DNA of 64,000 nucleotides, taken from an uncultured virus (IMG/VR IMGVR_UViG_3300027816_004729). Taxonomy: Duplodnaviria; Heunggongvirae; Uroviricota; Caudoviricetes. The stretch lies in IMG/VR virus record IMGVR_UViG_3300027816_004729. One strand, given 5' to 3'. The translations under genes were made by a program, and so were the position numbers. Of this stretch, positions 17,228-33,655 are shown piece by piece (the stretch's first letter is position 1; the number at the start of each line of letters is the position of its first letter). Below the pieces are notes generated by a model. The model saw only the letters and a list, made by a program, of their open reading frames with translations. It did not search any database and was not told the origin of the DNA.

Positions 17228-17313
17228 GCTCAAGTGGCGAAATGGCAGACGCAAGGGACTTAAAATCCCTTTTCGCGAACAGCGAAGTGCGGGTTCGAGT
17301 CCCGCCTTGAGTA
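17228..17313 (+). tRNA. tRNA-Leu (anticodon TAA)
   Basis: Acceptor GCTCAAG/CTTGAGT, D-arm TGGCGAAATGGCAGACGC, anticodon arm AGGGA-CTTAAAA-TCCCT, long variable arm, T-arm GCGGG-TTCGAGT-CCCGC; no encoded CCA. Confidence 0.95.
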
Positions 17314-18167: not shown

Positions 18168-19514
18168 ATGCGAATCGAATTACGCCAGTATCAAAAGAAC
18201 GCAGCCTCAGATTTAGCTGAAATCTTATCCGAAAAGAAGTTTGCGTTAGACGGTTCAGATACCGGCATTGGAAAGACGTTTACTGCTATAGGCACTTGCT
18301 TGCGCTTTAACAATCCGGTGGCCGTTATATGCAAAGCCAGAACCTTGACCAAATGGAAAGAAGCTCTAGCACAATTTGGAATTGAACCTATATTCTTGTT
18401 GAGCTGGGAAAAGGCACGTAATGGCAAGAATGGATTCTTTCTTCCGCTCAATTCAAAAGGCCGTGTTTCTGGCTTCAATTTGCAGCTTAAAGAACCAACG
18501 GTCGTTATCATTGACGAGATTCATTGTGGCGGTGCGCTCAAGAGTTTAAACGCAGAACTTGTCATTGCATGCAAGCGATGCCCAAATGCGTACACTCTTG
18601 GGCTTAGCGCTACCGTCGCCGACTCGCCTCTTAAAATGCGGGCGATTGGATTTTGTTGCAATCTGCACTCATTAGGTAACGACTTCTGGAATTGGTGTCG
18701 GAAGAATGGTTGCGGCAAGTCTCCATTCGGCGGTTTGTATTTCCGACAAAAAGATCGTGAACGCGTACTCAAGACACTTCATCAATATCTATTCGGTAAA
18801 GATGCCAAATGGGGAATCCGTTTACGTAAGAAAGAACTCATGGAGGAAGGCAGTTTTCCTGAGTCCGAAGTTTATGTGGAATTGTGGGATCCGCCGAACT
18901 CTTTGCCAGCTTGGGCACAAGCTTCTATAGCTGAGATTGATCAACGTGAACAAGCCGACATGGAAAAATACGACGGCAATCCGCATGGTGGAATTCTGCA
19001 CATGCGTAGTCGTCAGCGGACAGAAATCCAAAAATTACCGTCTCTCATTGATGAAATCGAAGACCGGTTGGCCGAAGGAGAGTCTGTTATTGTGTTCGTC
19101 CAATTCACCAGAACCATCCAGGTCTTGGCGAAACAATTGGAGCATATTCCTCATGCCATTATTTCTGGTGTTACGGCTAATAACCGCGTTGGTAGAGACG
19201 GCATTGAATACTTCCAGCGCAATCAAATCAAACTTATCATTTGCCAAGTAGACGCTGCCGCCGAAGGTATCGACTTACATGACGTTCATGGAGATTGCCC
19301 GCGACATGTTATCGTATTCCCAACTTACAAAGCGATTACGCTGATCCAGGTTTTAGGCCGAGCAGTGCGCGCTAATGCCAAAAGTCCCGTGGTTCAACGC
19401 ATTGTCTATTCTTCAGAAGGCATTGAGGAAAAGATCGCCCGTACCGTGGAAAAGAAACTTGAGAACTTGTCAATGTTATCCGACGGCGAACTCAATGCTG
19501 GAGGTATGTTGTGA
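18168..19514 (+). CDS. superfamily 2 DNA helicase
   Basis: LRQYQ Q-motif, TGIGKT, IIDEIH, SAT, EGIDL, QVLGRAVR. Confidence 0.92.
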   Translation: MRIELRQYQKNAASDLAEILSEKKFALDGSDTGIGKTFTAIGTCLRFNNPVAVICKARTLTKWKEALAQFGIEPIFLLSWEKARNGKNGFFLPLNSKGRVSGFNLQLKEPTVVIIDEIHCGGALKSLNAELVIACKRCPNAYTLGLSATVADSPLKMRAIGFCCNLHSLGNDFWNWCRKNGCGKSPFGGLYFRQKDRERVLKTLHQYLFGKDAKWGIRLRKKELMEEGSFPESEVYVELWDPPNSLPAWAQASIAEIDQREQADMEKYDGNPHGGILHMRSRQRTEIQKLPSLIDEIEDRLAEGESVIVFVQFTRTIQVLAKQLEHIPHAIISGVTANNRVGRDGIEYFQRNQIKLIICQVDAAAEGIDLHDVHGDCPRHVIVFPTYKAITLIQVLGRAVRANAKSPVVQRIVYSSEGIEEKIARTVEKKLENLSMLSDGELNAGGML

Positions 19515-20380
19515 AGACCGCTTTCGCTGGAATCCTAAACAACCCGGCAAATAGTCTTAACAGTCATTCTGCGGGTTGGAACCGATTAGTCCGTTCTCTC
19601 GTTGATCCTAAAGCCGTATTTGTCGGTGAAGACTGCGACTGGTCTGCATTTGACCGTATCATCATCAATCATGGACCGAACTTTAAACCCGGCTCGTTTA
19701 ACATTATTGGCGGTATCGGTGACGCGGTACTCATGCGTTTAGAAAAGTTAGCTGCGGCTTTTGATACGGCAGAAGTTTATCAAATGGATGGATTCAATCT
19801 TGGCGACTTCTTGCAAAAGCGTTTACCTGGGCGATACGACTTTGAAGGCGAGATTCCATTTATGCCTTTGCCACAGCGCGACAAATTGGTACTGGGTGAT
19901 AGTCATTCTATCTCGGTTTGGCCAGGACCTGAATATACGATTGAGCGGCGAGATGGCCAAACGTTATGGGGATTCATGAGAGATCCCAAACCCGCGGACT
20001 TCCTATATCTGGGCAATATCGATATACGCTTCCATCTTTGCCGCCAAGAGGATCCGTTAAAATCCATGCATTCTCTTCTTGACCGATACTTACAATTTGC
20101 AGCGGACTGTAAGGCAAAAGTTAGTTGTTTACTCCCGGTAGAATCCGAAACTCGTAAAATTCCCGGCACCGGTCTTTACAAAGGTCAACCTTTCTATGGG
20201 TCACAAGCCGACCGCGCGCTTCTCGTTAATGAATTCAACTCTAGACTCATTGAGTCTGGATTAGACGTCTATTGCTGGCCAAAAACCTGGTATGAAAACG
20301 TCGAGCAATACGAGAATGAAGTCATGGAACCCCGTCAATCTGTACATATACGCCCAAAACACTATGCAAGTCAAATCTGA
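19511..20380 (+). CDS. SGNH-like protein in DNA-modification cluster
   Basis: LGDSHS (block I-like), YLGNID (block III-like), SVH at the C-terminus (block V-like); overlaps both neighbours. Confidence 0.5.
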   Translation: MKTAFAGILNNPANSLNSHSAGWNRLVRSLVDPKAVFVGEDCDWSAFDRIIINHGPNFKPGSFNIIGGIGDAVLMRLEKLAAAFDTAEVYQMDGFNLGDFLQKRLPGRYDFEGEIPFMPLPQRDKLVLGDSHSISVWPGPEYTIERRDGQTLWGFMRDPKPADFLYLGNIDIRFHLCRQEDPLKSMHSLLDRYLQFAADCKAKVSCLLPVESETRKIPGTGLYKGQPFYGSQADRALLVNEFNSRLIESGLDVYCWPKTWYENVEQYENEVMEPRQSVHIRPKHYASQI

Positions 20381-21329
20381 AATTCTTGAAGCCTTAGACG
20401 ACTATCACTATAAAAGTCTACGAATGCAGCGTTATTTCCTCGACAAACAAACCCGAGGTCTTTCGCTTGAAGAAATCGAGTTAGAAATCAATGATGACTT
20501 AATCTTCCGCGTGCCGATTTACGACATGTTAGACCGACGCTATGCGGCTTTCTGTTCTTTCCTGGAAGCTCTTGACAAACGAGAAGACGACCCAAAAGGA
20601 CATGGCCTTCGATTCAAGGACCACCAGGTCGCGCGTAGAATCGACAAACTCATGCTTTATTATCTTTTCCGTTTATGCGGTTCTGGGATCAATTACGTGC
20701 CAACAACGCATGGATTCGGGAACTTCTGGATCGTTAAAAGTATCCTGGACGGAAGATACCGCTATGAAGAATGGCTTCAAGACTTGCCGGACGCCAAGTT
20801 CAGTGACAACAAAGGCTATCTTCTTCCGCAATTCTCAATCGGTCTTAAGACATTCATTCTTGAACACGCTTACGGCCTTGTGAAGTTTATCGAATCCGAA
20901 ATTGTGGATTCACTCCAAGACATCAAAGAGATTGTGGACAAAGGCAATATCTATCTGAAAGAAAACGGCTTCAAGCGCCAAACGTTTGTGCTCTCTGCTT
21001 TTGCCGCGGATATTGCCGAGTATTATCCTGATTATGTGAACCCCCATAGCATGATTTACGCCGGTACAAACGCTCAGAAGTGCATCAAGGCTATATTCGG
21101 CCGTTGTAATCCGGATGAAGCGATTTCGTTCTTAACCGAACGGTACAATTCCGTACCTTATTCCATTGAAGACTCAAGACTCTGCGATCCAGTACGGTAC
21201 TTTCTGGAATATCAGTCAAAAGACCATATCCGCGCTAATGGCGGAAAAACTTACAAGAACAATTCAACCCTCAAAAAATTGTGGACCGAACAAGAATACC
21301 AAAATTTTCAGCAACAACTTCAGAAGTAA
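20364..21329 (+). CDS. 5-hmdU DNA kinase helical-domain-like (aGPT-Pplase clade 1-like) protein
   Basis: Order of motifs IYDMLDRR, YLFRL, F.LSAFAADI, YAGTNA.KCI..IF, IED..LCD..RY parallels the NV.RE.D / LFR / F.AY....DL / GPGA..GL / IE..LCE..KY pattern recalled for this family; divergent. Confidence 0.55.
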   Translation: MQVKSEILEALDDYHYKSLRMQRYFLDKQTRGLSLEEIELEINDDLIFRVPIYDMLDRRYAAFCSFLEALDKREDDPKGHGLRFKDHQVARRIDKLMLYYLFRLCGSGINYVPTTHGFGNFWIVKSILDGRYRYEEWLQDLPDAKFSDNKGYLLPQFSIGLKTFILEHAYGLVKFIESEIVDSLQDIKEIVDKGNIYLKENGFKRQTFVLSAFAADIAEYYPDYVNPHSMIYAGTNAQKCIKAIFGRCNPDEAISFLTERYNSVPYSIEDSRLCDPVRYFLEYQSKDHIRANGGKTYKNNSTLKKLWTEQEYQNFQQQLQK

Positions 21330-22129
21330 ATCAGGACGCTATCTATACTCGAGACCAGTATCTCGAAATGATAGGCGACTTCAAGAGTTCTTTTCCTACT
21401 CCGGTTATCGAGACGCATGAAGGTCGGTACGTTGTGCGTGAAGATTTACTCGAAGTAGGCACGAAATCCCGAGCTGGAGAATTCCTTATCGCGACTTGCC
21501 CTTATGATACGATCGTTTACGTTCAACCTCGTTGCGGTTTTGCCGGAATTTCGTTGACCAAACTCTGTAAAATGTACGGCAAAAAACTGGTCTTGTTTAT
21601 GCCTTCGTCAAAAGAAGTCTCGAATCATCAAGCTTGGTGCATTGAACACGGCTGCGAATATCATTTCCATAGGATTGCGGCTATGCCCAATTTGAATTTG
21701 ATTGCGGCTAAATGGGCTGAAGAAAACGGAGCATTTTTCGTTCCTCTTGGTTTGCACCATAAATTGGTCACGGCCATGCTTGTCAAAGTCGCCTATGAAC
21801 TATGCGAACCGGATTGCTTTTGGACGGCATTTTCAACGGGTGTTCTTAACCGCGCTCTTCAAATTGCTTGGCCCGAGGCTGAAGCAAATGGCGTAGCGGT
21901 GGCCCGCAATATCCATGAAGGGGAAAAAGGTCGTGCCAGGATCGTGGGCCATTATAGATCCTTTACTCAAGATAGTCTAATATTGCCGCCATTTCCTTCT
22001 GCACCAAATTATGACGCCAAAGTCTGGGAATTCACAGAACCTGGCGATTTATTTTGGAACGTAGCCGGAGAAGTCAAAAGCAATTTAAACCCTGCGACAA
22101 TCAATTCTTATCGAGACTGGAAAAAATGA
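21281..22129 (+). CDS. PLP-dependent enzyme (fold type II), DNA-hypermodification type
   Basis: VVREDLL..GTKSR (PLP-Lys motif), STG loop, NYDAK.W..; start uncertain. Confidence 0.7.
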   Translation: MDRTRIPKFSATTSEVNQDAIYTRDQYLEMIGDFKSSFPTPVIETHEGRYVVREDLLEVGTKSRAGEFLIATCPYDTIVYVQPRCGFAGISLTKLCKMYGKKLVLFMPSSKEVSNHQAWCIEHGCEYHFHRIAAMPNLNLIAAKWAEENGAFFVPLGLHHKLVTAMLVKVAYELCEPDCFWTAFSTGVLNRALQIAWPEAEANGVAVARNIHEGEKGRARIVGHYRSFTQDSLILPPFPSAPNYDAKVWEFTEPGDLFWNVAGEVKSNLNPATINSYRDWKK

Positions 22130-22752
22130 GTGCTAATCACCATTGCTTAAACGCGTCAATTCCTCAGCATCTTTATGGCTATGTAAACCGTCTTTTTTTG
22201 ACGGGGTATGACCCAGAAGAAGAACTTAATTACGAACCGTGCGTCATTTTTGGCGTGACGTCGATTCCTTCGCGCGCGTTGCATTTTTCAATTTTATGCG
22301 AAAGCGGGGCGCAGTGGGCAAGAGTCCCATTGCACATGTTACGCTGGGAAATTCCGGCAATAGACAAAGCGCCAGAGCATTCACTCTCCGAGTTGCAAAT
22401 GTGGGATTCTCATGGCTGGGATTTTAGCGTTTGTCGTTACGAGTATTTGCGCGAACTCGGTTGCCAATACCGCAAACGCGACGGCGCATTATTGCCCGCG
22501 TCGTATTGGTTCACCCTCGATCACACGGACAACGGATATAGTCAATATCCACCTGAACATAAGTGCTACCATTTGCTTTTGATTGAAGATGGATCTGGAC
22601 AAATTGCGGCGCAACCGAATAACCGTATCGTATGGCGCGATGATAGTTTTGTCAAGCCAGGACATAGTCTGAACTACAAAGTCGTAACGCGTGAAACTTA
22701 TCACGCTGAGATTGGACGCAATCCCCAAGATACCGCTTTTACAACTGAGTAA
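22126..22752 (+). CDS. conserved-looking phage hypothetical protein
   Basis: ATG at 22126 (ATGA overlap); motifs GA.W.R.P, YWFTLD, EHK, QPNNR. Confidence 0.65.
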   Translation: MSANHHCLNASIPQHLYGYVNRLFLTGYDPEEELNYEPCVIFGVTSIPSRALHFSILCESGAQWARVPLHMLRWEIPAIDKAPEHSLSELQMWDSHGWDFSVCRYEYLRELGCQYRKRDGALLPASYWFTLDHTDNGYSQYPPEHKCYHLLLIEDGSGQIAAQPNNRIVWRDDSFVKPGHSLNYKVVTRETYHAEIGRNPQDTAFTTE

Positions 22753-22753
22753 A

Positions 22754-22797
22754 TTTTTAAAAAAAAATGTTTACTTAGCAGCTGGCCATATTAAAAC
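22754..22797 (+). promoter_or_regulatory. degenerate copy of the phage promoter motif
   Basis: TTTTAAAAAAAAATGTTTACTTAGCAGCTG shares the A-tract, the TGT.TAC-like box and TAGCAGC with the copies at 32675 and 34121. Confidence 0.4.
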
Positions 22798-22807
22798 CAA
22801 CATTGTC

Positions 22808-23239
22808 ATGAGTACAACAAGCCCAAAACCCAATCTCGTCATTAGACGTGATGCTAAGAAAGAAATCGTCGAAGCTTTGCAAGCAGTTTGCGATTCCCTT
22901 AAAGGATCCAATTCGCTGCTTCTTCGTCAATGTCAGTCAGCCTTGAAGAAAGCTCTTGCGCTATCATTTGCGGTATCGCTAAGCGCATGCTCTTCGATGG
23001 TCAAAGAGACCTACACTGAGACACGCGAATTCAACTACCCGAAAGGTGTCACCCCGCACCTCAAGGATATGTATATGCACAAGTCGCCGCCACCGCAAGC
23101 TTCCAATAACGACGTAGTCGACTTTGCTCAACCAGTCGCGGAATTACAAGATGAACTACCGCGTAGTCTTGAAGAGATCAAAGCCGAAAACCGCCTTCTA
23201 GCGGCAATGCACGTTAACAAAATGCTACGCGAACAATGA
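22808..23239 (+). CDS. hypothetical protein with internal hydrophobic/lipobox-like segment
   Basis: ATG at 22808; ALALSFAVSLSAC segment. Confidence 0.5.
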   Translation: MSTTSPKPNLVIRRDAKKEIVEALQAVCDSLKGSNSLLLRQCQSALKKALALSFAVSLSACSSMVKETYTETREFNYPKGVTPHLKDMYMHKSPPPQASNNDVVDFAQPVAELQDELPRSLEEIKAENRLLAAMHVNKMLREQ

Positions 23240-23700
23240 AACGTTTATCGATCGAAGACTATGCAATGGCTATTGCTTTTGCTGCGTCCATGCGCAGCGA
23301 AGATCCATCCAGGAAAGTTGGCGCAGTGGCGCTAGACTGGGAAAACCGGGTCATAGCCACAAGTTATAACGGGCTACCGAAAGGGTTCCAAGAATCGGAT
23401 TCTTTCTGGGAAGACCACGACAAACGTCGTAAGTTTGTGGTACATGCCGAGACTAATCTTTGTTCATTGACGGTGCGCGGTCAAGTTCTCACAGTAGCAG
23501 TGACAACGATGCCTTGCGCAGCTTGCGCTATAAACCTTGTAGCGCATGGAGTCAAAAAAGTTATCTACGGCGAAGACTATCCGCGCGATCCCGTAGGACG
23601 AGAAATCCTTGAGCATTACTGCGTAGAATTAATTCACGTTCCACGCAATGCATTAACCCGCATTAATTTTCCAATTCAAACAAGTCAACAATCATTATGA
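23236..23700 (+). CDS. dCMP deaminase
   Basis: RSED..RKVGA, YNG.P, HAE and PCAAC zinc motifs. Confidence 0.92.
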   Translation: MKRLSIEDYAMAIAFAASMRSEDPSRKVGAVALDWENRVIATSYNGLPKGFQESDSFWEDHDKRRKFVVHAETNLCSLTVRGQVLTVAVTTMPCAACAINLVAHGVKKVIYGEDYPRDPVGREILEHYCVELIHVPRNALTRINFPIQTSQQSL

Positions 23701-24857
23701 GTACATTAAACCATAGCGAACGCGAGCATTCGCGTATATCCCCATCAGGACTAAAGTCCTTGCAGGTTTGCCCGGGTTATCAATCCGATGGCAAAGAAAA
23801 CGCAGCTTCTAAACGCGGCACTAGTTTGCATGAAATCATGGAACTCGGCAAGATTCCGGATAATTGCACGCTACCTCCTGAAGACATTGCCGTGGCAAAT
23901 CAAGTTTTAGAATTGCTAAAAGAGATTGACGCTCAAAGCGAGTATGAACCTATTGTGGAAATACTCGTACGTTACGATGCCTTAGAACTCAAAGACTTTG
24001 AACAAGGCCATATCGATCGAGTTTTAGTTCTCGACACGAATCCTGAAGGCGAACCTACTAAGTTAGAATTAGTTGACTTTAAGTTTGGGCAATGGGAGGT
24101 TGATTCACTCCACGAAAACATCCAGTTCAGGGCTTATGCCTTGGGTCTTTTCTTGCAATTTCCGGCAGTACAAACTATTCGATTACGACTCGTTCAACCA
24201 GCGTTGAATATCAACACTACATACGATCTAACTCGCTCAAAAGACTACGAGTTGATTGTCACGCAAATTAAGTCAATTGTCAAACGCAAGCATCACTACG
24301 ATGAAACTAAAGATGCAAGCATGCTCAAACCCGAATCGCAATGCGCATTCTGCGCGGCTCAAGCGACTTGCAAAAAATGGCAAGAGCACATGGTTCGAGT
24401 GGCCAACGAGAGTAACTTTCTCGGCACGCAAGTCGTACCGATCGAAAAAGTAGATGATCCATACTCGGCCGAACCGAATGAAGTCGTTAGAATCTTCCGC
24501 TGGATCAAACCCATGGAAGATTACTTGAAAAAAGTCAAAAAATTGGCTTTGGCTTGTTATGACAATGGTAGATTTTCGGACGAGTTCACGCTTATCGAAA
24601 AGTCAGGCGACGTGACAGTCGTCGACCCGATCCTTGCCCGCGACTTATTACAGCAGCACTACGGCATTGATCCGATGGAATACTTGGCATCTTGTGAGAT
24701 TTCTTTAACCAAAATACGCGAGTTAGTTGGCGCAAAAGCTTCTCAAGGCAATAAAGGAAAAGATCAAGAAGAAGCCATTAAACTTCTCTCTGATAACGGG
24801 ATCATACAATATGGCCCTGAAATCCGATATGTCCAGTTATCGCGTAAACGCAAATGA
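23697..24857 (+). CDS. Cas4-like PD-(D/E)XK exonuclease (DUF2800-like)
   Basis: SPS..CPG, GT.LHE, GHID, DFKFG, Q..AY, C..C.....C. Confidence 0.8.
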   Translation: MSTLNHSEREHSRISPSGLKSLQVCPGYQSDGKENAASKRGTSLHEIMELGKIPDNCTLPPEDIAVANQVLELLKEIDAQSEYEPIVEILVRYDALELKDFEQGHIDRVLVLDTNPEGEPTKLELVDFKFGQWEVDSLHENIQFRAYALGLFLQFPAVQTIRLRLVQPALNINTTYDLTRSKDYELIVTQIKSIVKRKHHYDETKDASMLKPESQCAFCAAQATCKKWQEHMVRVANESNFLGTQVVPIEKVDDPYSAEPNEVVRIFRWIKPMEDYLKKVKKLALACYDNGRFSDEFTLIEKSGDVTVVDPILARDLLQQHYGIDPMEYLASCEISLTKIRELVGAKASQGNKGKDQEEAIKLLSDNGIIQYGPEIRYVQLSRKRK

Positions 24858-25096
24858 CGCTAACTAACTTTCAAAAGATGCTAGCCGACGAGGATTTACT
24901 CCCGGCGTGCATCGTAGACCATGAAACAACTTTCGCACAAATGAAGTTCACTGACTTGGATGTCGTGCAACTCGTCTTTGCGACTAGAGAATTTAGCCCG
25001 GATTTCGACGTGGAATTCGGGTCAGCTGACGAAATGTCGGTTGGCCAATGGCTAAAACTGGCTGAATGCCAGGAAACCAACAAACAAACAAAATAA
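24854..25096 (+). CDS. acyl-carrier-protein-like small acidic protein lacking the DSL serine
   Basis: 80 aa, acidic; TDLDVVQLVFA aligns with ACP DSLDTVELVMA; C-terminal SVGQW resembles TV.D. Confidence 0.4.
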   Translation: MTLTNFQKMLADEDLLPACIVDHETTFAQMKFTDLDVVQLVFATREFSPDFDVEFGSADEMSVGQWLKLAECQETNKQTK

Positions 25097-25110
25097 CATA
25101 CACACATAAT

Positions 25111-26079
25111 ATGGCAGTTGTACCAATGAAGTTGTCGCTGAAAAAGAAAACAGCAGACGTGACACCCGCACAAAACGCAGTTCAAGAAGAACCTGTAGCT
25201 CCAAAAAGGCTTACTAAGAAAGTTGAAGAAGAGCAAATGGAATTATTTGAAGACGCTCCGGCCAAACCCGTAGTTCAAGTCGACTCTGAACCTGTAGAAG
25301 AAACTCCTAAATTGAAAAAAGTCGCAATTGTTGAAAAAACTCTGGCGCCTAAAGTTGAAGAAGTTGACGAGGAACTTGAAATCATTAGCGCCGATCCGGC
25401 AGATCGTGCTTTGGCCAATTTCTCGCCAATGGCAATGGGAACAATCGATGGTGCAATCACAGAGCGCGATCTTTTGCGCCCGCGTATCACCATGGTTCAA
25501 GCCAATTCGTCAGATTTGGAAGAACGAGGATATACCGTTGGCCAAATCGTTCTGAATGGACAGGTGTTGATCTGGGACAAAGGTTTTGATCCTCTTAATT
25601 TAGTCCTCGTAACTGGCCGTAAAAAGTTTATTCAAAAACTTAGCGACGAGGAATACAAAGAAGGAGTTATTCCGATGATCTTTGAAAATCCTAAGGACGC
25701 AGAAGCCGCTGGATTTACTACCGAGTGGGAAAATAATGAACCTCCAACCGTTGACCCGGCGTTGTTCTGCTTGTTCCTCTTGCAACAACCGGATTACATC
25801 GAACCAGATCCGATTTTCAGCATGGAGTTTGACGGTAAAGCATACACGCTTGCAGAAATGCGTTTTTCAGGCGTTAACTTCCGTAGTTCCAGCGCGGGCC
25901 GTTGGCTAATGACGCAAACGCGCACATCGCTTGCGCCCGATAGTCGGCATTTTTCAATCGGTATGACATGCTCTCGTGAAAAACAGAAATCCGGGAATAT
26001 TGTTACGGTTGCTTCATTCCGCAATCAAGGGCGCCACAAAAATCCACGATTCATAGAGTGGGTTATGTCGCTCGCATAA
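25111..26079 (+). CDS. ssDNA-binding/recombination protein (putative)
   Basis: Sits between exonuclease and PolA; DL..PRI..VQ..S motif; low-complexity acidic N-terminus; ATG at 25111 after an AC-rich leader. Confidence 0.45.
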   Translation: MAVVPMKLSLKKKTADVTPAQNAVQEEPVAPKRLTKKVEEEQMELFEDAPAKPVVQVDSEPVEETPKLKKVAIVEKTLAPKVEEVDEELEIISADPADRALANFSPMAMGTIDGAITERDLLRPRITMVQANSSDLEERGYTVGQIVLNGQVLIWDKGFDPLNLVLVTGRKKFIQKLSDEEYKEGVIPMIFENPKDAEAAGFTTEWENNEPPTVDPALFCLFLLQQPDYIEPDPIFSMEFDGKAYTLAEMRFSGVNFRSSSAGRWLMTQTRTSLAPDSRHFSIGMTCSREKQKSGNIVTVASFRNQGRHKNPRFIEWVMSLA

Positions 26080-26081
26080 TT

Positions 26082-26161
26082 TGGGCGCTAGTTCCCTAGG
26101 GCTTCGGGACTAGCGGCTCATGACACCCGAGCTGGCAGACCTCGGTCAAAAGCTGTCTGCC
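26082..26161 (+). ncRNA. structured intergenic RNA: hairpin plus H-type pseudoknot
   Basis: Stem 26086-26095/26106-26115; pseudoknot S1 CCGAG 26127-31/CTCGG 26141-45 and S2 GGCAGAC 26134-40/GTCTGCC 26155-61. Confidence 0.55.
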
Positions 26162-26168
26162 TATTTTT

Positions 26169-26810
26169 ATGAACCAACCCGCAATTTACCGATTTAGAAT
26201 TCCAGATTTTCCAGGTCACGAAGACAGCGTTACCGGTTTTCATTTTTCATTTTTGGCAAACCTGACTGACATAGCCACACTCCCTAATCTTCCTTGGACG
26301 ACTATCTTTGTGGATTCTCCAGAAGAAGCCGGCGAACCTTTGGCCTGGCGAATGAATGCCACAGACCAATCTACATTCGTGGAGTTGGAAACAATTTCAG
26401 ATGCCGGTATGTCTACTATGTTAGACGAAGCTCGGAAAGCTTGGCAAAATTTAATCGCTACAACGTTTAAGAATGCTCGCTACATGTCATTGTTAGGAGC
26501 GCACCGCGAAGTCATTGATAGAGTCCAAGAACCGATTAAAAAGCGGCACGTTAAAGTCTACACGCTGCAAGATGATTTTTTAGCTAAAATGTATGCCGTA
26601 GGATCCGCGGATATCGTTCGTATAGCGGGTGTCCTCTCAAGGAAAGACAGCGAAGATGAGGCCGATCATTTTATCGGGGCTATAAAACTTGAACATTTTT
26701 TGTGGGGACTAAACGAAACTCGTCTTGAAGAATGGCAACAACAGCGTTACGATAAGGCCATTGCCGGGGATTACAGTTTATTTATCAGTAAATACGCTCC
26801 ACAAGAATGA
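26169..26810 (+). CDS. hypothetical protein
   Basis: 213-aa ORF overlapping the PolA start. Confidence 0.65.
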   Translation: MNQPAIYRFRIPDFPGHEDSVTGFHFSFLANLTDIATLPNLPWTTIFVDSPEEAGEPLAWRMNATDQSTFVELETISDAGMSTMLDEARKAWQNLIATTFKNARYMSLLGAHREVIDRVQEPIKKRHVKVYTLQDDFLAKMYAVGSADIVRIAGVLSRKDSEDEADHFIGAIKLEHFLWGLNETRLEEWQQQRYDKAIAGDYSLFISKYAPQE

Positions 26811-28594
26811 AAAAACCATTTGTAGCCATCGACTTTGAAACTTCCTTCTTCCCTAAACGGAAGATCGGGTTAAAGACCATGGGCGTTGACCAATATCTTT
26901 GGCACCCAGAAGTTGAAATTTATCTAGTCTCGGTTTATTCCGACATTTTAGAGCCTTTTGTAGGCCATCCGTACGATATGGATTGGAGTCTTATCAAAGA
27001 CTTTGATTGGGTCAGTCATAATGCCGGATTTGACCGCCGTGTTTTCCGTAGACTTTGCCACTTAAGACCGGAAATTGCTGAAGGCGAAACAAAGTATTGG
27101 CAATGTACGGCAAACTTGTCTACGTGGTTTGGCCATCCAAGAGACTTAAAGAAAGCGTGTGCCGCAGTGTTTAACAGCGACATTAGCAAAGACGCTCGGA
27201 AAAAGATGGAAAACAAAACCTATACCGAGTTAAAGCACTCAAATGACTGGAATGAAATTTTAGATTACGCCGCTCGCGATGCCTATTGGTGTTGGCGTCT
27301 TTGGGATGAACTCGCCGACGCATGGCCTCAAATCGAGAAAGACATATCAGATATGACGACTCGGCAAGTCATGCGCGGTTTACCTTGCGACAAAGAGTAT
27401 CTCGATCGCTCGATCAAAAAACTCGAGCGCGAATGTTGGGAAGCAAAGAATAATATTCCATGGGCTAGTAACTCCAACGACAAAGCCGTATTAAGTCCTA
27501 TTGCTTTGGCCGAAGAATGCCGCAAGATTAATGTGGCTCCGCCTAAGTCAATGGCTGAAGACAATCCTGAAACGCAACAATGGGAACTAGACAATTTGTC
27601 CATTCCATGGGTCAAAGAAATGCGTCGATATCGGAAAGCAAATTTGTTGCTGACAAAACTAAGTACGATGAAAAACCGTCTTCGGCCGTATGATGGCCGT
27701 TTTGACTTCAGCCAAAAATACTGCGGAGCCCATACAAAGCGCACTTCCGGCGACCAAGGATTCAATGTTCAAGGTTTTCAGCGTGATCCATACATGTGCA
27801 GCGATAACGAGCGCGTGGATATGCGCCGGGTCATCCATTCCATGAATGGCGGCAAACTCATTATCGCCGATCTTGCGCAAATCGAACCTAGGACGTTAGC
27901 TTGGATCACCGACGACCGAGCTAAAATTGACCTAATCAACAAAGGCGTTTCGGTCTACGAAGTTCACGCGATTCAAACGTTGGGTTGGTCCGGCGGAAAT
28001 CTTAAAAAGGAAGACCCTAAAACGTATGCGCTTTGCAAAATGCGCGTCCTTGGACTTAGTTATGGCTGCGGATGGCAAAGATTCATTGACTATTGCTTCA
28101 ACCAGTTCGGATACGAGCTTAGCGATCGTGATTCAAAGATGCAAGTCAACGATTTTCGCCGTAAAGAACGGTTGATTGTCGGTTTATGGAATCAACTACA
28201 AAGCAAGCTTGAAAATTCAGCCGGCCAAGATTTAGAAATTGAATTGCCTTCTTGGAATACTCTAAAGTATCGCGATGTACGCAAAGTTGCCGGTCAGATT
28301 ACGGCCACTCTTGCGACTGGACGCGTCAACAAAATTTGGGGCAGTCTAGCTGTTGAGAATATTATTCAATCTACGGCGAGAGATTGTTTTTACGAGAAGC
28401 TCATACAAATCGAAAATGCCGGAATTCCAACGTTGTTTAGCGTGCACGATGAAGTCATTACGGATGAAATTCCGGAAGATCAACAAAAAGACGCGCTAGA
28501 AACCGTCGAAAGTATTATGCGCGGCGAATGCGCGTGGATGCCTGGAATTGCCTTAGACTCAGAAATCACCGTTAGTCCCTTCTATTTAAAATGA
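26807..28594 (+). CDS. polA: family A DNA polymerase with 3'-5' exonuclease
   Basis: ExoI IDFET, ExoII HNAGFD, ExoIII YAARD; motif A ADLAQIE.R, motif B K.RVLGLSYG, motif C VHDE. Confidence 0.93.
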   Translation: MKKPFVAIDFETSFFPKRKIGLKTMGVDQYLWHPEVEIYLVSVYSDILEPFVGHPYDMDWSLIKDFDWVSHNAGFDRRVFRRLCHLRPEIAEGETKYWQCTANLSTWFGHPRDLKKACAAVFNSDISKDARKKMENKTYTELKHSNDWNEILDYAARDAYWCWRLWDELADAWPQIEKDISDMTTRQVMRGLPCDKEYLDRSIKKLERECWEAKNNIPWASNSNDKAVLSPIALAEECRKINVAPPKSMAEDNPETQQWELDNLSIPWVKEMRRYRKANLLLTKLSTMKNRLRPYDGRFDFSQKYCGAHTKRTSGDQGFNVQGFQRDPYMCSDNERVDMRRVIHSMNGGKLIIADLAQIEPRTLAWITDDRAKIDLINKGVSVYEVHAIQTLGWSGGNLKKEDPKTYALCKMRVLGLSYGCGWQRFIDYCFNQFGYELSDRDSKMQVNDFRRKERLIVGLWNQLQSKLENSAGQDLEIELPSWNTLKYRDVRKVAGQITATLATGRVNKIWGSLAVENIIQSTARDCFYEKLIQIENAGIPTLFSVHDEVITDEIPEDQQKDALETVESIMRGECAWMPGIALDSEITVSPFYLK

Positions 28595-29094
28595 ACAAAC
28601 CAACACCAAAATCCCTGCCACAACCACTACCACACTTCACGGTTTCCGTGATTCCTTTGGATCCAGAAAACTTGACTACGGCGTTACTCTACCGAGGCGA
28701 AGGAGTGCGCTCTGCTAAAAATTGTCTGGCCATTCCATCCGGACTTTTAGAACACGGCGAATCTTTTAAAGAGTCTATCGTGCGAGAACTAGAAGAAGAA
28801 CTCGGCATACCCGCGGATGCTTGCGGATTCCTTAAATTTCACTCACTTTACCGGAATATTTTACCAGACGGTTTTGATTGGGTAATCGGAATTTGGAGTA
28901 TAGAAGTTTCTAACTTGGCGGATCTCGCGAAAAACTGTGAACCCGACAAACACGATTACGTGAAAGTCGTGAAACTTTATGAACTTTGGGATTGGCTTAA
29001 TAATGAAAAGTCTCTTGAATTTGCGCCTAATTTAGCAGAAAACTTAAAACCCGTTGTCCGCGAAATTCTAATAAATGCTCCAATCGGAAAATGA
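28591..29094 (+). CDS. NUDIX hydrolase
   Basis: Nudix box GLLEHGESFKESIVRELEEELGI. Confidence 0.9.
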   Translation: MNKPTPKSLPQPLPHFTVSVIPLDPENLTTALLYRGEGVRSAKNCLAIPSGLLEHGESFKESIVRELEEELGIPADACGFLKFHSLYRNILPDGFDWVIGIWSIEVSNLADLAKNCEPDKHDYVKVVKLYELWDWLNNEKSLEFAPNLAENLKPVVREILINAPIGK

Positions 29095-29783
29095 ACCCAA
29101 TCATCATCATTGAAGGTCCGGATGGTTGCGGTAAAACAACATGGTGCAAACACTATCAAGCCATGTTCGGCGGAAAGTATATGCATCTCGGATTGCATAA
29201 AAATTTATACGCATATCAGACTATGAGTTTAGTTCGCGCGGTGTACTGGGCAAAAAAAGTCCCGGTGCTTATCGATAGGCATTGGCCTTCTGAACAAATC
29301 TACGGGTCTGTTTACCGCGGGGCATGTTTGCGCAAAGAAGCCGCTCGGCTAGAAAAGTTTTGCGAGGATCTCGGTATTTTTTATGTTGTGGCCATTGGTG
29401 ATGATGCCGAGTCTATGGCAAATTGGCATCAAGAAACTTCGGCTCAGCGTCCCGAAATGTACTCGCCTGACTCGAACTACCGAAAAGTACTAAATGGCTA
29501 TCTTGATTGGTGGTCAGGTAAAAGTACTTGCGCCGTGAATATCGGCCATTGTGCTGAAACTAAGCCTATGTGCTCTAAATTTTTTTCGGCCATCCAGTAT
29601 AACCGCGAAGGATTTAAAGGTCAAACCGGTATTAACAACCATATTCATATTACTCAGGTTTTAGCTACAAACTGGCGTAATTTTCGACTTTCGTTAAAAG
29701 ACAGCAACACCCTCACTAAAAACCAACTCATCAAAGAATGCGGATATGAAGCCCCAAAAAACAGCAACCAATGCATGGCTTGA
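29091..29783 (+). CDS. deoxynucleoside monophosphate kinase (thymidylate-kinase-like)
   Basis: IIIEGPDGCGKTT P-loop and IDRHW.SE.IY. Confidence 0.85.
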   Translation: MNPIIIIEGPDGCGKTTWCKHYQAMFGGKYMHLGLHKNLYAYQTMSLVRAVYWAKKVPVLIDRHWPSEQIYGSVYRGACLRKEAARLEKFCEDLGIFYVVAIGDDAESMANWHQETSAQRPEMYSPDSNYRKVLNGYLDWWSGKSTCAVNIGHCAETKPMCSKFFSAIQYNREGFKGQTGINNHIHITQVLATNWRNFRLSLKDSNTLTKNQLIKECGYEAPKNSNQCMA

Positions 29784-30567
29784 CCTAATAGCAAAAATTA
29801 CTGCTTCAGGTCAAATTCACAAACCTAGAAACCTCCCTATTCGGGAAATCGTCGGAAATCAAGTCAAATTTGACATGAAGTATCCGATCGTCTTAACTAA
29901 AGCTAGAAATCTTAACTACAAGTTTATGGCCGCCGAAGCTTGGTGGATGCTTAGCGGCCGAAACGATACCGCGTCTATCGGAGAATACTGTAAAGCAATT
30001 CTAAAGTTCTCAGATGATGGCAAAACTTTTTTTGGTGCTTACGGTCCCAAAATTTCGTCTCAGATTGACTATGTGGTTAGCAAATTGAAGCAAGATCACG
30101 AAAGTCGACAAGCCGTCATAAACATCTGGAGAGAAAATCCACCTGAAACTAAAGATACGCCTTGCACAATTTCTGCGCAGTGGTTGATTAGAAATGGCGA
30201 GTTACACTGCATCGACACTATGCGTTCAAATGACGCGTGGCTAGGTTTTCCTTACGACGTATTCAACTTCTCGATGTTATCTTGGCATATTGTTAATGAA
30301 CTCCAAAAAGACGGGTTTAATGATCTTAAACTTGGCACTTTCACGCTGAATGCCGGATCGCATCATCTTTACGAGCCGGATTGCGAAAAGATCCGCGTCC
30401 TATCGCCGATAGAGTGGTCTGACAGCATAGACTTCAATATTTGCGCCGGCGGCGAATCCTGGCCAATCCTGGATCAACTGGCGTGGGTTTTAGGTAAAAC
30501 TGAAAATCCAGAAGGCTCAAAAAGCGCATTTTTCACGGAGTTCAAATCGAAACTTGTCTCCAAATGA
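29746..30567 (+). CDS. thymidylate synthase homologue with Asp at the specificity position (dCMP methylase/hydroxymethylase-like)
   Basis: AYG, SRQA, catalytic PC (DTPCT), MRSNDAWLGFPYDV (Asp where ThyA has Asn177), SHHLY. Confidence 0.8.
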   Translation: MKPQKTATNAWLDLIAKITASGQIHKPRNLPIREIVGNQVKFDMKYPIVLTKARNLNYKFMAAEAWWMLSGRNDTASIGEYCKAILKFSDDGKTFFGAYGPKISSQIDYVVSKLKQDHESRQAVINIWRENPPETKDTPCTISAQWLIRNGELHCIDTMRSNDAWLGFPYDVFNFSMLSWHIVNELQKDGFNDLKLGTFTLNAGSHHLYEPDCEKIRVLSPIEWSDSIDFNICAGGESWPILDQLAWVLGKTENPEGSKSAFFTEFKSKLVSK

Positions 30568-32675
30568 AATTAGCCACCATCCAGAATCTGCAATGCCAGG
30601 ACGTTTCGTTTGACCATCCGTGGACGTTCGAACCGAAAGTTCCGACTTTCAAAAATAAAAAAGCTTACAAAGAGTGGCTCGGCCAAGAAAACACGGAGCA
30701 CATGCTCTACAGCGGTTTTACCGGACTCATAGCGTCCCTTAGAATCCACAAAGATGCTAATGCCATACACTCGATGCAAGCTTTGGTGGCGGATTATGAC
30801 GCCGAGATAAGCTTATCAGATATCGAATCGATGCTTTCGCGGTGTGAGGCTACTGCCCCAAATTGGGTTCACAAAACTCCTTCGGGAGGAGCCCGACTCG
30901 TTTGGTTAATCGAACGCCCGGTCTTGGTGGCTTCAATGCCAATATTAAACAAGGCCCTGAAAATGGCGGCGAAACAACTCGACTTAAAAGGACTTTTGCC
31001 AGGTTTTGACTATCAAAACGCGTTCTTAAATCCATCCATCTACTATGACGTCGGCAAGGACTGGATGGTTGTGGAAGGATCCGAGCCGCTTAAAGCCGCG
31101 CTAGCTGAAGGTTGGATGCTTAAATCTTCAGACAATATCGAATGGCATGGAGAAACTATCCCGTTGGATGTTGTCGAGAAAAAAGTCCATGAGATGTTTC
31201 CAAATCGGTGGAACGGTCCGTTTTCTGAAGGTTCTAGAGGTTGTCGCTTTTGGGATCCAATGGCGGATAACCCTTCTTCGGCAATTGTGCGTCCTACTGG
31301 AATGCAATGTTTCACCGGTCCGTCAGGTTTTGTGCCATGGTCAAAGATTTTCGGCTCTAAGTTTGTCGATCAATATACCGTCGAGAGACTCGGCGATATA
31401 GTCGATGGGATTTGGTATGACGGCTCATCCTATTGGTACGAGTCGGCGGACGGAAAATGGGAAGCTCGGTCTGAACGCGAAATGTCACGCTGGCTTAAAG
31501 TAGAACAAGGACTTTCGGGCGAAAAGGAGAAGAACGCGACGTTTTCCGAAGTCGACCACGCGCTATTCACAATCGATCAACATAAACGCGTTATCGGCGC
31601 GGCCCCTTTTGTCTACCTTCCAGCAGGCATGATCGAGTTCATGAAAAAGCGCGTATTGAATACGGCTAGGGTCAAGCCATTGCCTCCAGCTCCGCCCGTT
31701 GACGACTGGGCGCATGGTTTTCCGTGGCTCGCGTCTTTCCTAGAAAAGTTCTTTTCTTGCGAAGACCAGTTAATGCACTTTTTGAGTTGGCTAAAACGGT
31801 TCTATGTTTCCGCCCTCGAAGGAGCCCCGAAGCAGGGACAAGCGTTGTTTATCGCCGGTGAACCAGGTCAAGGAAAAACCTTACTCTCAAACCGCATCAT
31901 TTCGGGTTTAGTCGGCGGGCATCAAGATGCGACTCAGTTTTTACTAGGGGCTTCTAATTTTAACAAAGAACTTTTCCATCACGGTCTGTGGACAGTCGAC
32001 GACGCAACTCCAGGTGACAATGCCGCGGACCATAAAAAGTTTTCCAGTCTGTTAAAAAAAGTCACCGCAAATACCACATTCGAGTATCACGCCAAATTCC
32101 AGGATTCGGTAATGGTCGAATGGACAGGCCGCGTAATCATTACTGGCAATTTGGACGCCGAGTCACTAAGGATCTTGCCAGATTTAGACACCTCGATCCT
32201 CGACAAGATTATGCTTTTCAAAGCCGCGACTATCGATAAAAAATTTCCTGACCGCCATGAGTTGCAAAATACGATCAACCGCGAGTTGCCTTACTTAGGC
32301 GCTTGGTTAACCGAATACCAAATTCCCGAAGAGTACTTCGGAGAGACGCAGCGTTACGGCGTGAAAAGTTATCACCATCCAGAATTACGGCATGCGGCAG
32401 GCGAATCCACGGACGCCGCGGTGCTCGACGAAATATTGGATTCGTTTTTAGAGCAGCGAAAAAAGAATCGCGAACCTATTCCTTGGAGTGGTACTGCCAC
32501 GCAACTCATGCAAGACATTTTTGTCGACGACATTTTAAAAGGTATTGTTGGCCGCAATTCAGCGCGATGGTTCGGAATCAATCTTGGAAAACTTGAAGCT
32601 CAAGGCAGAGGCGTAGAATCGAAGCGTTCCAATGGCAAAAAAATTTATATCGTAGGCCTAGAGAAAAAAAGTTGA
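30564..32675 (+). CDS. primase-helicase (AEP-like N-terminus plus SF3/D5-like P-loop)
   Basis: ADYD and HKTPSGGAR primase-like motifs; GEPGQGKT Walker A, VDD, ITGN. Confidence 0.75.
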   Translation: MKLATIQNLQCQDVSFDHPWTFEPKVPTFKNKKAYKEWLGQENTEHMLYSGFTGLIASLRIHKDANAIHSMQALVADYDAEISLSDIESMLSRCEATAPNWVHKTPSGGARLVWLIERPVLVASMPILNKALKMAAKQLDLKGLLPGFDYQNAFLNPSIYYDVGKDWMVVEGSEPLKAALAEGWMLKSSDNIEWHGETIPLDVVEKKVHEMFPNRWNGPFSEGSRGCRFWDPMADNPSSAIVRPTGMQCFTGPSGFVPWSKIFGSKFVDQYTVERLGDIVDGIWYDGSSYWYESADGKWEARSEREMSRWLKVEQGLSGEKEKNATFSEVDHALFTIDQHKRVIGAAPFVYLPAGMIEFMKKRVLNTARVKPLPPAPPVDDWAHGFPWLASFLEKFFSCEDQLMHFLSWLKRFYVSALEGAPKQGQALFIAGEPGQGKTLLSNRIISGLVGGHQDATQFLLGASNFNKELFHHGLWTVDDATPGDNAADHKKFSSLLKKVTANTTFEYHAKFQDSVMVEWTGRVIITGNLDAESLRILPDLDTSILDKIMLFKAATIDKKFPDRHELQNTINRELPYLGAWLTEYQIPEEYFGETQRYGVKSYHHPELRHAAGESTDAAVLDEILDSFLEQRKKNREPIPWSGTATQLMQDIFVDDILKGIVGRNSARWFGINLGKLEAQGRGVESKRSNGKKIYIVGLEKKS

Positions 32676-32712
32676 AAAAAAGTATGTACGATAGCTAGCA
32701 GCCTGATAGCAT
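32675..32712 (+). promoter_or_regulatory. phage early-type promoter, copy 1
   Basis: AAAAAAAGTATGTACGATAGCTAGCAGCCTGATAGCAT: A-tract, TGTACG (-35-like), TGn-TAGCAT (extended -10); near-identical to the copy at 34121. Confidence 0.7.
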
Positions 32713-32722
32713 AGCTCTCGTC

Positions 32723-33655
32723 ATGAGCATACCAGACATACAAATCGGTTCACCTGTCACCGTCAAGGTCCAAGGTGAAGTAGTCAACGCCACCTACCAA
32801 GGTTGGTCAGATAAATACAGCCTCGCTATTGTCGAGGTCAACGGGCAACGGCTTTACCGCAAGTTGCAAAACTCACCTACTTCTTCGAAGCAAACCGTAG
32901 TTCCAAAGAAATCGCGCTTCGACATCAACACGCGATTCGACTTCATCGAACAAGTCGTCGATATGGTTGTGTCTGGCGAATCAAAGTCCGTGATTATCAC
33001 CGGCGACGGTGGTCTCGGAAAAACGCACACCGTTATGGACCGCTTGACTAGTCAAGGTCTTGAATGCGCGGATGTCGTACTTGACAGTGACGACGAAGAA
33101 GACGATGGTACAACTAGGCGCGGTGCCGGCGACTATGTCGTTATCAAAGGTTTTGTGACAAGCCGAGCGCTTTACGATCTTCTCTATGAGAACCGCGACC
33201 GACTCATCGTATTTGACGACTGCGATTCTGTCTGGGAAGTGCCTACTTCGGTATCGCTGCTCAAAGCGGCTTTAGATTCTTACGACAAGCGCACGATCTC
33301 CTGGCTCACGGCCACGTCTCCTGATATACCGCGCTCCTTTGAGTTTACTGGCCGCGTCATATTCGTGTCAAACTTGCACCTCGGCGAACTCGACCAAGCT
33401 GTACTTAGTCGCTGTCTCTATGTGGACGTCAGCATGACGACCGAAGAAAAGATTGAGCGCATCCGCCATGTAGCTCCCCGCGTCCGACCTGACATGACGA
33501 AAGATGCCAAAGACGAAGTCATCGAACTACTCGACTCTGTCCGAGATCAGATCGGCGACCTCAATATCCGCACCTTCCTCAAAGCCTGCGAAATCCGCAA
33601 TCGCAATTCCGCCAATTGGCGCGACCTCGTCGAATACGTAGTCACCGCATTCTAA
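32723..33655 (+). CDS. AAA+ ATPase
   Basis: GDGGLGKT, VFDDCD, LKAALDS, FVSN, SR. Confidence 0.85.
   Translation: MSIPDIQIGSPVTVKVQGEVVNATYQGWSDKYSLAIVEVNGQRLYRKLQNSPTSSKQTVVPKKSRFDINTRFDFIEQVVDMVVSGESKSVIITGDGGLGKTHTVMDRLTSQGLECADVVLDSDDEEDDGTTRRGAGDYVVIKGFVTSRALYDLLYENRDRLIVFDDCDSVWEVPTSVSLLKAALDSYDKRTISWLTATSPDIPRSFEFTGRVIFVSNLHLGELDQAVLSRCLYVDVSMTTEEKIERIRHVAPRVRPDMTKDAKDEVIELLDSVRDQIGDLNIRTFLKACEIRNRNSANWRDLVEYVVTAF

Follow-up and report, generated by a model that had tools for sequence, protein, structure and literature searches.

We analyzed a 64,000-nucleotide stretch of DNA (hereafter the window, meaning the whole stretch) from an uncultured Caudoviricetes virus, IMGVR_UViG_3300027816_004729. 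The replication and nucleotide module of this phage occupies window positions 18168-33655 on the plus strand and includes seven genes that may together replace cytosine by a hypermodified base. All open reading frames (ORFs) named in an earlier reading of this DNA, here called the original prediction, were present on the plus strand, and those that concern the pathway are as follows.

19511-20380, plus strand: SGNH two-domain protein, 289 amino acids (aa); predicted fold, invariant residues, and PHROG matches phrog_13881/17781
20364-21329, plus strand: all-helical protein, 321 aa; predicted HhH-GPD DNA-glycosylase-like fold
21281-22129, plus strand: fold-type-II pyridoxal 5'-phosphate (PLP) enzyme, 282 aa; phrog_7093
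23236-23700, plus strand: dCMP deaminase, 154 aa; Pfam dCMP_cyt_deam_1 and phrog_174
28591-29094, plus strand: NUDIX hydrolase, 167 aa; Pfam NUDIX
29091-29783, plus strand: P-loop kinase, 230 aa; phrog_761 and similarity to gp29 of Stenotrophomonas phage AXL3
29746-30567, plus strand: thymidylate synthase (TS) homologue, 273 aa; Pfam Thymidylat_synt

The first three genes form a trio with overlaps of 17 and 49 nucleotides (nt), and the SGNH gene overlaps the preceding helicase gene by 4 nt; the NUDIX, kinase, and TS genes likewise overlap one another and constitute one module. The original prediction had described an overlapping trio of SGNH-like, helical, and PLP proteins together with an Asp-type TS flanked by dNMP-kinase-like and NUDIX genes, with a dCMP deaminase nearby; Pfam and PHROG matches bore out the nucleotide genes, and the trio was recovered through its folds and phrog_7093. 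Neither ThyX nor a DNA kinase of the 5-hydroxymethyldeoxyuridine (5-hmdU) type was found in the window, no glycosyltransferase was found in its nucleotide and decoration module, and megablast of positions 19511-30567 returned no match among phage records.

The TS homologue matched Thymidylat_synt with 84.5 bits, above the cut-off, and its residues 160-172 (nt 30223-30261) read RSNDAWLGFPYDV. We aligned it with Escherichia coli ThyA, T4 gp42, RB69 gp48, M6 gp58, an SPO1-type gp29, AXL3 gp28, HTVC200P gp14, and both TS homologues of phage 44RR2.8t. Relative to E. coli ThyA, D171 (of PYD) corresponded to N177, D163 to D169, and D137 (in KDTPC) to L143, and C140 was the catalytic Cys. In Lee et al. 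2026, N177D denotes a dCMP substrate, L143D/E a hydroxymethyl product, and D169N a 5-hydroxy-dCMP (5hodCMP) synthase. The window protein carried the Cys146/Asp177 combination of dCMP-using enzymes (C140 and D171; alignments with MilA and Bacillus subtilis ThyA agreed), and it had the features of hydroxymethylation, namely an acidic residue at the L143 column (D137) and a retained D169 (D163). It had neither the Asn at D169 of RB69 gp48-type 5hodCMP synthase (D163 instead) nor the Asn177 of dUMP hydroxymethylases (D171, versus Asn in M6 gp58 and Goe10 gp29). In particular, D143/T147/M165/D169/D177 were identical to those of T4 gp42 and the 44RR gp42, whereas dUMP hydroxymethylases showed N177, the RB69 5hodCMP synthase N169, and ThyA L143. 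The Asp-type call of the original prediction thus grew into a full dCMP-hydroxymethylase signature. The best PDB match of the protein was MilA, a CMP 5-hydroxymethylase (E 1e-20), and in a maximum-likelihood tree it grouped with AXL3 gp28 and HTVC200P gp14 (97/95). Judged by these residues, the window TS homologue is most likely a dCMP hydroxymethylase, one that falls outside the gp42 clade.

The neighboring nucleotide genes were consistent with such an assignment. The NUDIX protein (Pfam, 41.3 bits; Nudix box at residue 51) occupies the position taken by the gp30 NTP pyrophosphohydrolase of AXL3 and by MazG or dUTPase-like genes in other loci that carry the trio, and it had no sequence similarity to the AXL3 gp30 NTPase; by analogy, we proposed that it may act as a pyrophosphohydrolase on dCTP (or dNTPs) and so deplete the canonical nucleotide. 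The kinase gave a weak Thymidylate_kin/phrog_761 match ("thymidylate kinase", E 1e-9) over its P-loop region, its N-terminus shared 36% identity with the "thymidylate kinase" gp29 of AXL3 over 87 aa (E 1e-11), and no similarity to the 5-hmdU DNA kinase M6 gp54 was found; we proposed, again by analogy, a T4 gp1-like dNMP kinase for modified dCMP. The deaminase matched dCMP_cyt_deam_1 with 50.9 bits as well as phrog_174 and carried HAE and PCAAC motifs.

The closest cultured counterpart of this module was gp27-gp30 of phage AXL3, in which NTPase, kinase, and TS genes follow the order seen in the window, a deaminase gene lies beside them, and the TS (gp28) is 46% identical to the window TS, with identical diagnostic residues. 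Unlike in the window, the AXL3 NTPase is not a NUDIX protein, and the AXL3 genome yielded no SGNH or helical protein and no PLP match. According to the AXL3 paper, only two of 37 restriction enzymes cut the phage DNA, both at A/T-only sites, all tested sites containing G/C resist, and a separate ThyX is encoded. This digestion pattern is compatible with replacement of C (or G) by the NTPase-kinase-TS module.

The trio was read against the thymidine-hypermodifying systems of M6, ViI, PaMx11, PhiW-14, and SH-Ab 15599, which comprise a dUMP hydroxymethylase, a 5-hmdU DNA kinase (5-HMUDK), an aGPT-Pplase/amino-acid:DNA transferase, and a PLP decarboxylase. In these pathways, as set out in Lee 2021, the kinase phosphorylates 5-hydroxymethyluracil (5hmU) in DNA, the transferase swaps the phosphate for an amino acid, and the PLP enzyme decarboxylates conjugates with a free alpha-amine.

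The PLP enzyme of the window matched phrog_7093 (E 1.6e-32), of which M6 gp52 is the archetype (E 2e-159). Its family profile aligned to M6 gp52 in hhalign (94%, E 1.3e-7, 219 columns), with K62 placed on gp52 K36; K62, the predicted Schiff-base lysine, was invariant in 16 relatives. M6 gp52 is a verified decarboxylase and K36 its proposed Schiff-base lysine, according to Lee 2021. The Pfam PALP score was below the cut-off for the window protein (E 3.3e-5; 23.8 bits against 35), and a homologue at another locus (L021) reached 43.4 bits. Taken together, family membership and the conserved lysine place the window enzyme, at the level of sequence, in the M6 gp52/ViI gp226 decarboxylase family. 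Of the profile checks suggested with the original prediction, Thymidylat_synt was thus recovered above its cut-off, but PALP stayed below its own and the helical protein of the window matched neither HMUDK_hel nor aGPT-Pplase. Two homologues of the PLP enzyme in the 31-35% identity class were found in other contexts: one makes up the C-terminal portion of a lengthy "DNA modification methylase" in Erythrobacter phage R6L (gp1, L002), and the other directly follows two ParB/sulfiredoxin genes in Microcystis phage Mae-JY30 (L003:6016-6726). These contexts suggest further DNA-directed uses of the family.

The AlphaFold2 (AF2) model of the helical protein, with a predicted local distance difference test score (pLDDT) of 88, was all-helical and adopted an HhH-GPD DNA-glycosylase-like fold. 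Foldseek against BFVD matched it to viral "amino acid:DNA transferase domain" proteins (E 6e-10; template modeling score, TM, 0.73) and, more weakly, to the kinase helical domains of SP10 and PhiW-14 and to one Pplase1 protein; Foldseek against PDB gave no match at E <= 0.001. With VIA-align against PDB, the top match was a DUF2419 queuine salvage enzyme (7ugk, Z 8.7), next to PaMx11 gp46 (8z2m), the glycine:DNA transferase PUGT with its two-helix-bundle, DNA-glycosylase-like fold, at Z 8.6 (root-mean-square deviation, rmsd, 4.0; 199 aligned), and the HhH-GPD glycosylases AGOG, Mag1, and AlkA matched at Z 6-8. No PHROG match was found for the protein, no tblastn match in phage records at E 1e-3, and nothing significant in family-profile searches of PDB sequences, the helical-family profiles included.

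The helical family itself comprised 378 metagenomic homologues, a library-wide profile search returned 112 cluster representatives (clusters at 50% identity), and many acidic and Cys residues were invariant. HMUDK_hel (PF18723) did not match the window protein and matched one of 33 relatives at E 0.0023. Among 63 distant relatives scanned, one was a true HMUDK_hel protein (P0233, 47.3 bits) and one gave a weak match, below the cut-off, to the amino-acid:DNA transferase model ADDT (E 1e-3); a 57-member helical profile aligned to P0233 in hhalign (97.7%, E 2e-12). The same profile found nothing in the AXL3, HTVC200P, and 44RR genomes, in a search that had no positive control. The helical protein probably represents a Pfam-less branch of the amino-acid:DNA transferase/HMUDK_hel superfamily that stands outside the curated transferase families, and we proposed that it is a base-flipping DNA transferase acting on activated 5-hydroxymethylcytosine (5hmC). 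Where the original prediction had seen no recognisable amino-acid:DNA transferase, Table 1 of Lee 2021 equates the aGPT-Pplase family with the amino-acid:DNA transferases, a part for which the helical protein is our candidate.

The SGNH protein was modeled with high confidence (AF2, pLDDT 93) as two domains. The N-terminal domain (residues 1-120) is of a flavodoxin-like alpha/beta type with generic structural matches only (TM 0.5-0.65), and an ESM Atlas look-up gave it no assignment. Residues 121-289 adopt an SGNH/GDSL fold, which matched GDSL esterases in VIA-align at Z 10-11.6 (rmsd 3.2-3.6, 142-155 aligned) and 40 chains at Z of at least 8, with the O-acetyltransferases OatA and PatB at Z 9.3-9.5. 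S131 (GDSHS), N169 (GNID), and H279, together with glycines, were invariant in 31 relatives, in agreement with an SGNH fold and its catalytic residues. Neither GDSL nor any other Pfam family matched at E up to 10. We proposed that the SGNH protein is an acyl-enzyme that activates 5hmC in DNA. A complex prediction for the helical and SGNH proteins scored 0.00 and gave no verdict.

To place the trio among other phages, relatives of the helical protein were collected from 202 IMG/VR viral contigs and 80 loci were kept, five of them close relatives of the window; 17 module proteins of the window were searched against these loci with tblastn. SGNH genes were found in 76 loci, PLP genes in 79, TS genes in 57, and deaminase genes in 35, and the order was always SGNH, helical, PLP. 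Other replication genes were shared only by the five close relatives. Of the remaining 75 loci, 30 had at least 7 kb downstream, and TS was present in 25 and deaminase in 19 of these; one of the five loci without a TS hit (L053) has a TS by Pfam. Asp stood at the N177 column in all TS ORFs adjacent to the cassette (55/55), and representative cassette TS genes all carried D143/D169/D177 (33/33). Moreover, 32 of these 33 formed a clade (99/95) that was sister to T4 gp42 (94/85). The trio was therefore paired with two distinct Asp-type TS clades, that of the window being the second, and no pairing with an Asn-type TS was seen among the loci examined. Since the trio and Asp-type TS genes recur together in phages with unrelated backbones, the linkage is not a chance neighborhood, and we concluded that the trio is a mobile cassette. 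This conserved linkage supports the core of the original prediction, that a cytosine-type TS combined with relatives of thymidine-hypermodification enzymes indicates an undescribed pyrimidine hypermodification.

Pfam annotation of 144 ORFs from seven diverse loci gave a similar picture: TS was found in 7/7, DUF6378 in 6/7, deaminase (beside TS) in 5/7, and MazG in 4/7 or a dUTPase-like gene in 3/7, and no P-loop 5-hmdU DNA kinase or HMUDK_hel was detected by Pfam in these ORFs. HMUDK_hel was also without a match in four records. Three cassette genomes that were estimated to be at least 98% complete each encoded one TS and no HMUDK_hel; two of the three, both with a TS of the Asp type, gave no deaminase match. 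A pattern scan with the helical-family profile covered 185,579 cellular genomes and yielded 18 pattern matches, none of which was confirmed.

The DUF6378 protein (about 90 aa) was encoded immediately upstream of the SGNH gene or downstream of the PLP gene in six of the seven scanned loci, at the following Pfam-defined sites.

L009: 4196-4456
L013: 8863-9135
L021: 7908-8216
L038: 11979-12284
L053: 12650-12955
L072: 7737-8000

DUF6378 was not found by Pfam in the window. The PHROG label "phosphofructokinase" on DUF6378 families looks like a mis-annotation.

These distributions bear on whether the trio acts on DNA at all. If the TS made 5-methyl-dCMP or some other 5-substituted dCMP, the trio might serve a purpose unrelated to DNA bases, for example in amino-acid or lipid metabolism, where SGNH and PLP enzymes are common; the product specificity of the TS is, moreover, deduced from one residue correlation. 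We regarded this as very improbable, given the linkage of the trio to Asp-type TS genes across unrelated phages, the DNA-glycosylase-like fold of the helical protein, the fusion or adjacency of PLP homologues to ParB/DNA-methylase genes in the Erythrobacter and Microcystis phages, and the failure of the pattern scan to find the cassette in cellular genomes.

The same data also address the route of the modified base into DNA. The original prediction had offered, as its option (b), that 5-hydroxymethyl-dCMP is deaminated to 5-hydroxymethyl-dUMP and 5hmU is incorporated, so that the trio would modify thymidine positions as in M6 and ViI. The dCMP deaminase encoded in the window, the deaminase genes beside TS in 5/7 scanned loci and in 19/30 loci with long flanks, the relationship of the PLP and helical proteins to thymidine-pathway enzymes, and the weak sister position of the window TS clade to dUMP hydroxymethylases would all fit such a route. 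T4, however, pairs gp42 with a deaminase and yet makes no 5hmU. The characterized T-hypermodifying phages compared here all use N177 enzymes, and two of the three nearly complete cassette genomes lack a deaminase match and have only an Asp-type TS. In addition, AXL3 has the TS-deaminase pair, and its DNA was cut at A/T-only sites and at no G/C-containing site. We thus considered the deamination route improbable, and incorporation of 5hmC was retained.

Fusion proteins were informative about the roles within the trio. SGNH-helical fusions were found at L035 and in eight cluster representatives, in the latter with the SGNH part N-terminal to the helical domain, which is the layout of kinase and helical domain in 5-HMUDK. 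The original prediction had cast the SGNH-like protein as a non-orthologous transferase; because the P-loop DNA kinase is the part that is missing and the fusion layout resembles 5-HMUDK, the SGNH protein is more likely a stand-in for the kinase. Fusions were also encountered in cultured phages. ORF233c (795 aa) of Aeromonas phages 44RR2.8t, 31, and 25 is homologous over its N-terminal 330 aa to the SGNH protein (31% identity; hidden Markov model E 1e-60), and its C-terminus gave a weak HMUDK_hel match (E 0.0036); unlike in the cassette fusions, this C-terminal domain was not detected by helical-family profiles in hhalign and profile searches. 44RR2.8t encodes a gp42 orthologue with 55% identity to T4 gp42, and these Aeromonas phages, unlike the window, gave no PLP gene match. 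Directly upstream of ORF233c in 44RR2.8t lies a sodium:solute symporter gene (L001:4408-5931), which could import a substrate for the modification.

The fusions lend themselves to another account, the main rival of the reading that we favor and one with the same target, 5hmC. In this two-part transferase, group transfer would be catalyzed by the SGNH protein alone, with the helical protein binding DNA and presenting the flipped 5hmC; the product would be an O-acyl (acetyl or aminoacyl) 5hmC, followed by remodeling by the PLP enzyme. The SGNH-then-helical order mirrors the kinase-then-helical order, the sequence link of the helical family is to HMUDK_hel and not to ADDT, the Aeromonas phages have the SGNH fusion without a PLP gene, and the fold matches of the SGNH domain include two O-acetyltransferases, OatA and PatB. 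On the other side, a PLP decarboxylase homologue, present in 79/80 loci, needs both a free alpha-amine and a carboxylate, and an ester-linked amino acid would have no carboxylate; among named proteins, those structurally closest to the helical protein carry a transferase domain (E 6e-10) and are not kinases (E 0.07), and the helical family retains its many invariant acidic and Cys residues. On balance, we judged this two-part arrangement unlikely.

Taken together, we proposed that the phage replaces cytosine by a hypermodified, 5-substituted cytosine through cooperation of the nucleotide module and the trio, a reading to which we assigned a probability of roughly 0.5. By analogy with T4, the NUDIX hydrolase would remove dCTP, the TS homologue would convert dCMP to 5-hydroxymethyl-dCMP, and the adjacent P-loop kinase would phosphorylate this nucleotide for incorporation by the phage polymerase; the dCMP deaminase would feed dTMP synthesis, also as in T4. 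The translationally coupled trio would then act post-replicatively on 5hmC in DNA. The presence of transferase-like and PLP parts beside a cytosine-type TS, with no kinase and with an SGNH protein in the place of the kinase, led us to propose O-acylation of 5hmC as the activation step: the SGNH enzyme, either alongside the helical protein or docked onto it, would O-acylate the hydroxymethyl group through a Ser131 acyl-enzyme, and the acyl group would be the leaving group, equivalent to the phosphate that 5-HMUDK adds in the thymidine pathways. The helical protein would flip the base and substitute an amino acid, attached by the side chain; such a linkage, as in ViI, is favored because no radical-SAM isomerase was found. 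A free alpha-amine is required by the PLP enzyme, which would decarboxylate the conjugate as ViI gp226 does with O-seryl-thymidine and yield, as the predicted product, an aminoalkyl-(oxy)methyl-cytosine. The DNA of this phage may hence hold a base that lacks a chemical description. More tentatively, the cassette loci may represent a widespread class of phage bases, cytosines with an amino-acid-derived 5-methylene side chain, for which an SGNH acyl-enzyme replaces the ATP-dependent kinase in activation; we would put this somewhat below even odds.

Several observations weigh against the proposed pathway. Most SGNH enzymes are hydrolases, and the one in the window has no evident acyl donor. The PUGT match of the helical protein (Z 8.6) falls in the range that the tool calls "middling" for helical proteins and is level with those of the DUF2419 enzyme and AGOG; the Pfam models ADDT (PF18724) and aGPT-Pplase matched neither this protein (E up to 10) nor 33 relatives, and hhalign of the helical-family profiles, the 57-member profile included, against the verified transferase M6 gp51 found nothing. 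The sole solid sequence link, to HMUDK_hel, fits a substrate-presenting role and a transferase role equally. The C-terminal 140 or so residues of the kinase have no assignment, which leaves room for a DNA-kinase role, and the window itself encodes a dCMP deaminase. The TS phylogeny was likewise divided: the other cassette TS proteins were sister to T4 gp42, but the window TS clade lay outside that group, beside the dUMP hydroxymethylases, with weak support (92/84) and long branches. The rule that L143D separates hydroxymethyl from methyl products is a literature correlation (Lee et al. 2026). Finally, the pathway is built on folds, homologies, diagnostic residues, linkage, and fusions of predicted proteins, from which we infer all of its chemistry.

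Other genes of the window completed the picture of the locus. The replication genes recognized by Pfam/PHROG in the module were the following.

18168-19514, plus strand: helicase
within 18168-33655, plus strand: PD-(D/E)XK exonuclease, family-A DNA polymerase, and primase-like protein

Between the PLP and deaminase genes lies an ORF (22054-22752, plus strand; 232 aa) that matched phrog_3704 "ferredoxin" (E 1.5e-33) and no Pfam family, and that was confined to close relatives of the window (3/80 loci). A phmmer search of its part 22144-22752 against PDB gave only matches at E of about 0.9, in the N-terminal portion of mammalian thymidylate synthase, and an ESM Atlas look-up of the same part gave no assignment; the ORF might serve as an additional tailoring gene. 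A tRNA-Leu gene with anticodon TAA (17228-17313, plus strand) lies shortly before the replication module, and downstream are a Pyr_excise pyrimidine-dimer DNA glycosylase gene (33705-34112, plus strand; E 1e-22) and then a DUF932 protein gene (34237-35082). Outside the module, the window carries tail genes, other genes, and this one tRNA. Near the tail genes, an FkbM-type methyltransferase (E 5.6e-23) adjoins a DUF6492/Stealth-like protein (5814-7161, minus strand); the pair may modify a sugar or surface polymer and has no obvious tie to the DNA pathway. An ORF of 3874 aa (35132-46756, minus strand) had one weak PHROG match, to a family of unknown function (E 1.7e-7), and the idea of an N4-like phage with an N4-type virion RNA polymerase found no support in it.

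To our knowledge, all known non-glycosyl hypermodifications built on hydroxymethylpyrimidines are on thymine and start with a DNA kinase. If the proposed pathway is correct, cytosine hypermodification of the amino-acid type would be seen here for the first time, as would activation of a hydroxymethylpyrimidine in DNA by a group other than phosphate, and the known range of natural DNA bases would grow by a cytosine counterpart that relies on another activation chemistry. The pathway would also explain restriction resistance in many uncultured phages (202 viral contigs, 112 clusters at 50% identity) and provide new enzymes acting on 5hmC in DNA; enzymes of this kind are useful for 5hmC labeling and sequencing, which the structural study of PaMx11 names as a motive. 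Cultured entry points exist in Aeromonas phages 44RR2.8t, 31, and 25 and in Stenotrophomonas phage AXL3. Literature searches by kinase and transferase names, cytosine hypermodification, SGNH with hydroxymethylcytosine, and candidate products found no description of the cassette. The metavirome mining in Lee 2021 used kinase queries and would thus have missed a cassette without a kinase. Pelagiphage TS genes with aG/PT-PPlase1 partners were considered as the same cassette and rejected, since that family is recognized by Pfam and the passages on it mention no SGNH or PLP partner.

Among known systems, the nucleotide module most resembles that of T4, in which the gp56 dCTPase, the gp42 dCMP hydroxymethylase, the gp1 dNMP kinase, and the cd deaminase supply 5hmC, which is then decorated by glucosyltransferases. 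Both have an NTP pyrophosphohydrolase, a TS with the gp42 signature, a kinase, and a dCMP deaminase; in the window, a NUDIX protein takes the place of the gp56-type NTPase and the decoration enzymes are of the amino-acid type, with no glycosyltransferase found in the module. T4 gp42 is sister to the cassette TS proteins of the other loci, whereas the window TS belongs to the AXL3/HTVC200P clade. The arabinosylation of 5-hydroxycytosine in RB69 and DLP3, as described in Lee et al. 2026, also starts from a modified dCMP made by an Asp177 TS homologue and decorated on DNA; it differs from the window in the diagnostic D169N, which the window TS does not have, and in its use of glycosyltransferases for decoration.

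The decoration genes resemble most closely those of the thymidine pathways. In both, a TS-family hydroxymethylase, a predicted one in the window, supplies a 5-hydroxymethylpyrimidine and a PLP enzyme of the M6 gp52 family keeps its lysine, and the window helical protein probably shares the fold superfamily of the transferases and the kinase helical domain; as in the cassette, the genes are clustered and sometimes fused, according to Lee 2021. Unlike the thymidine-pathway transferases, the window helical protein matches no Pfam transferase model. More importantly, the thymidine pathways use an Asn-type TS and a P-loop DNA kinase, whereas the window has an Asp-type TS and, in the place of the kinase, an SGNH protein, a substitution that extends to the fusion proteins.

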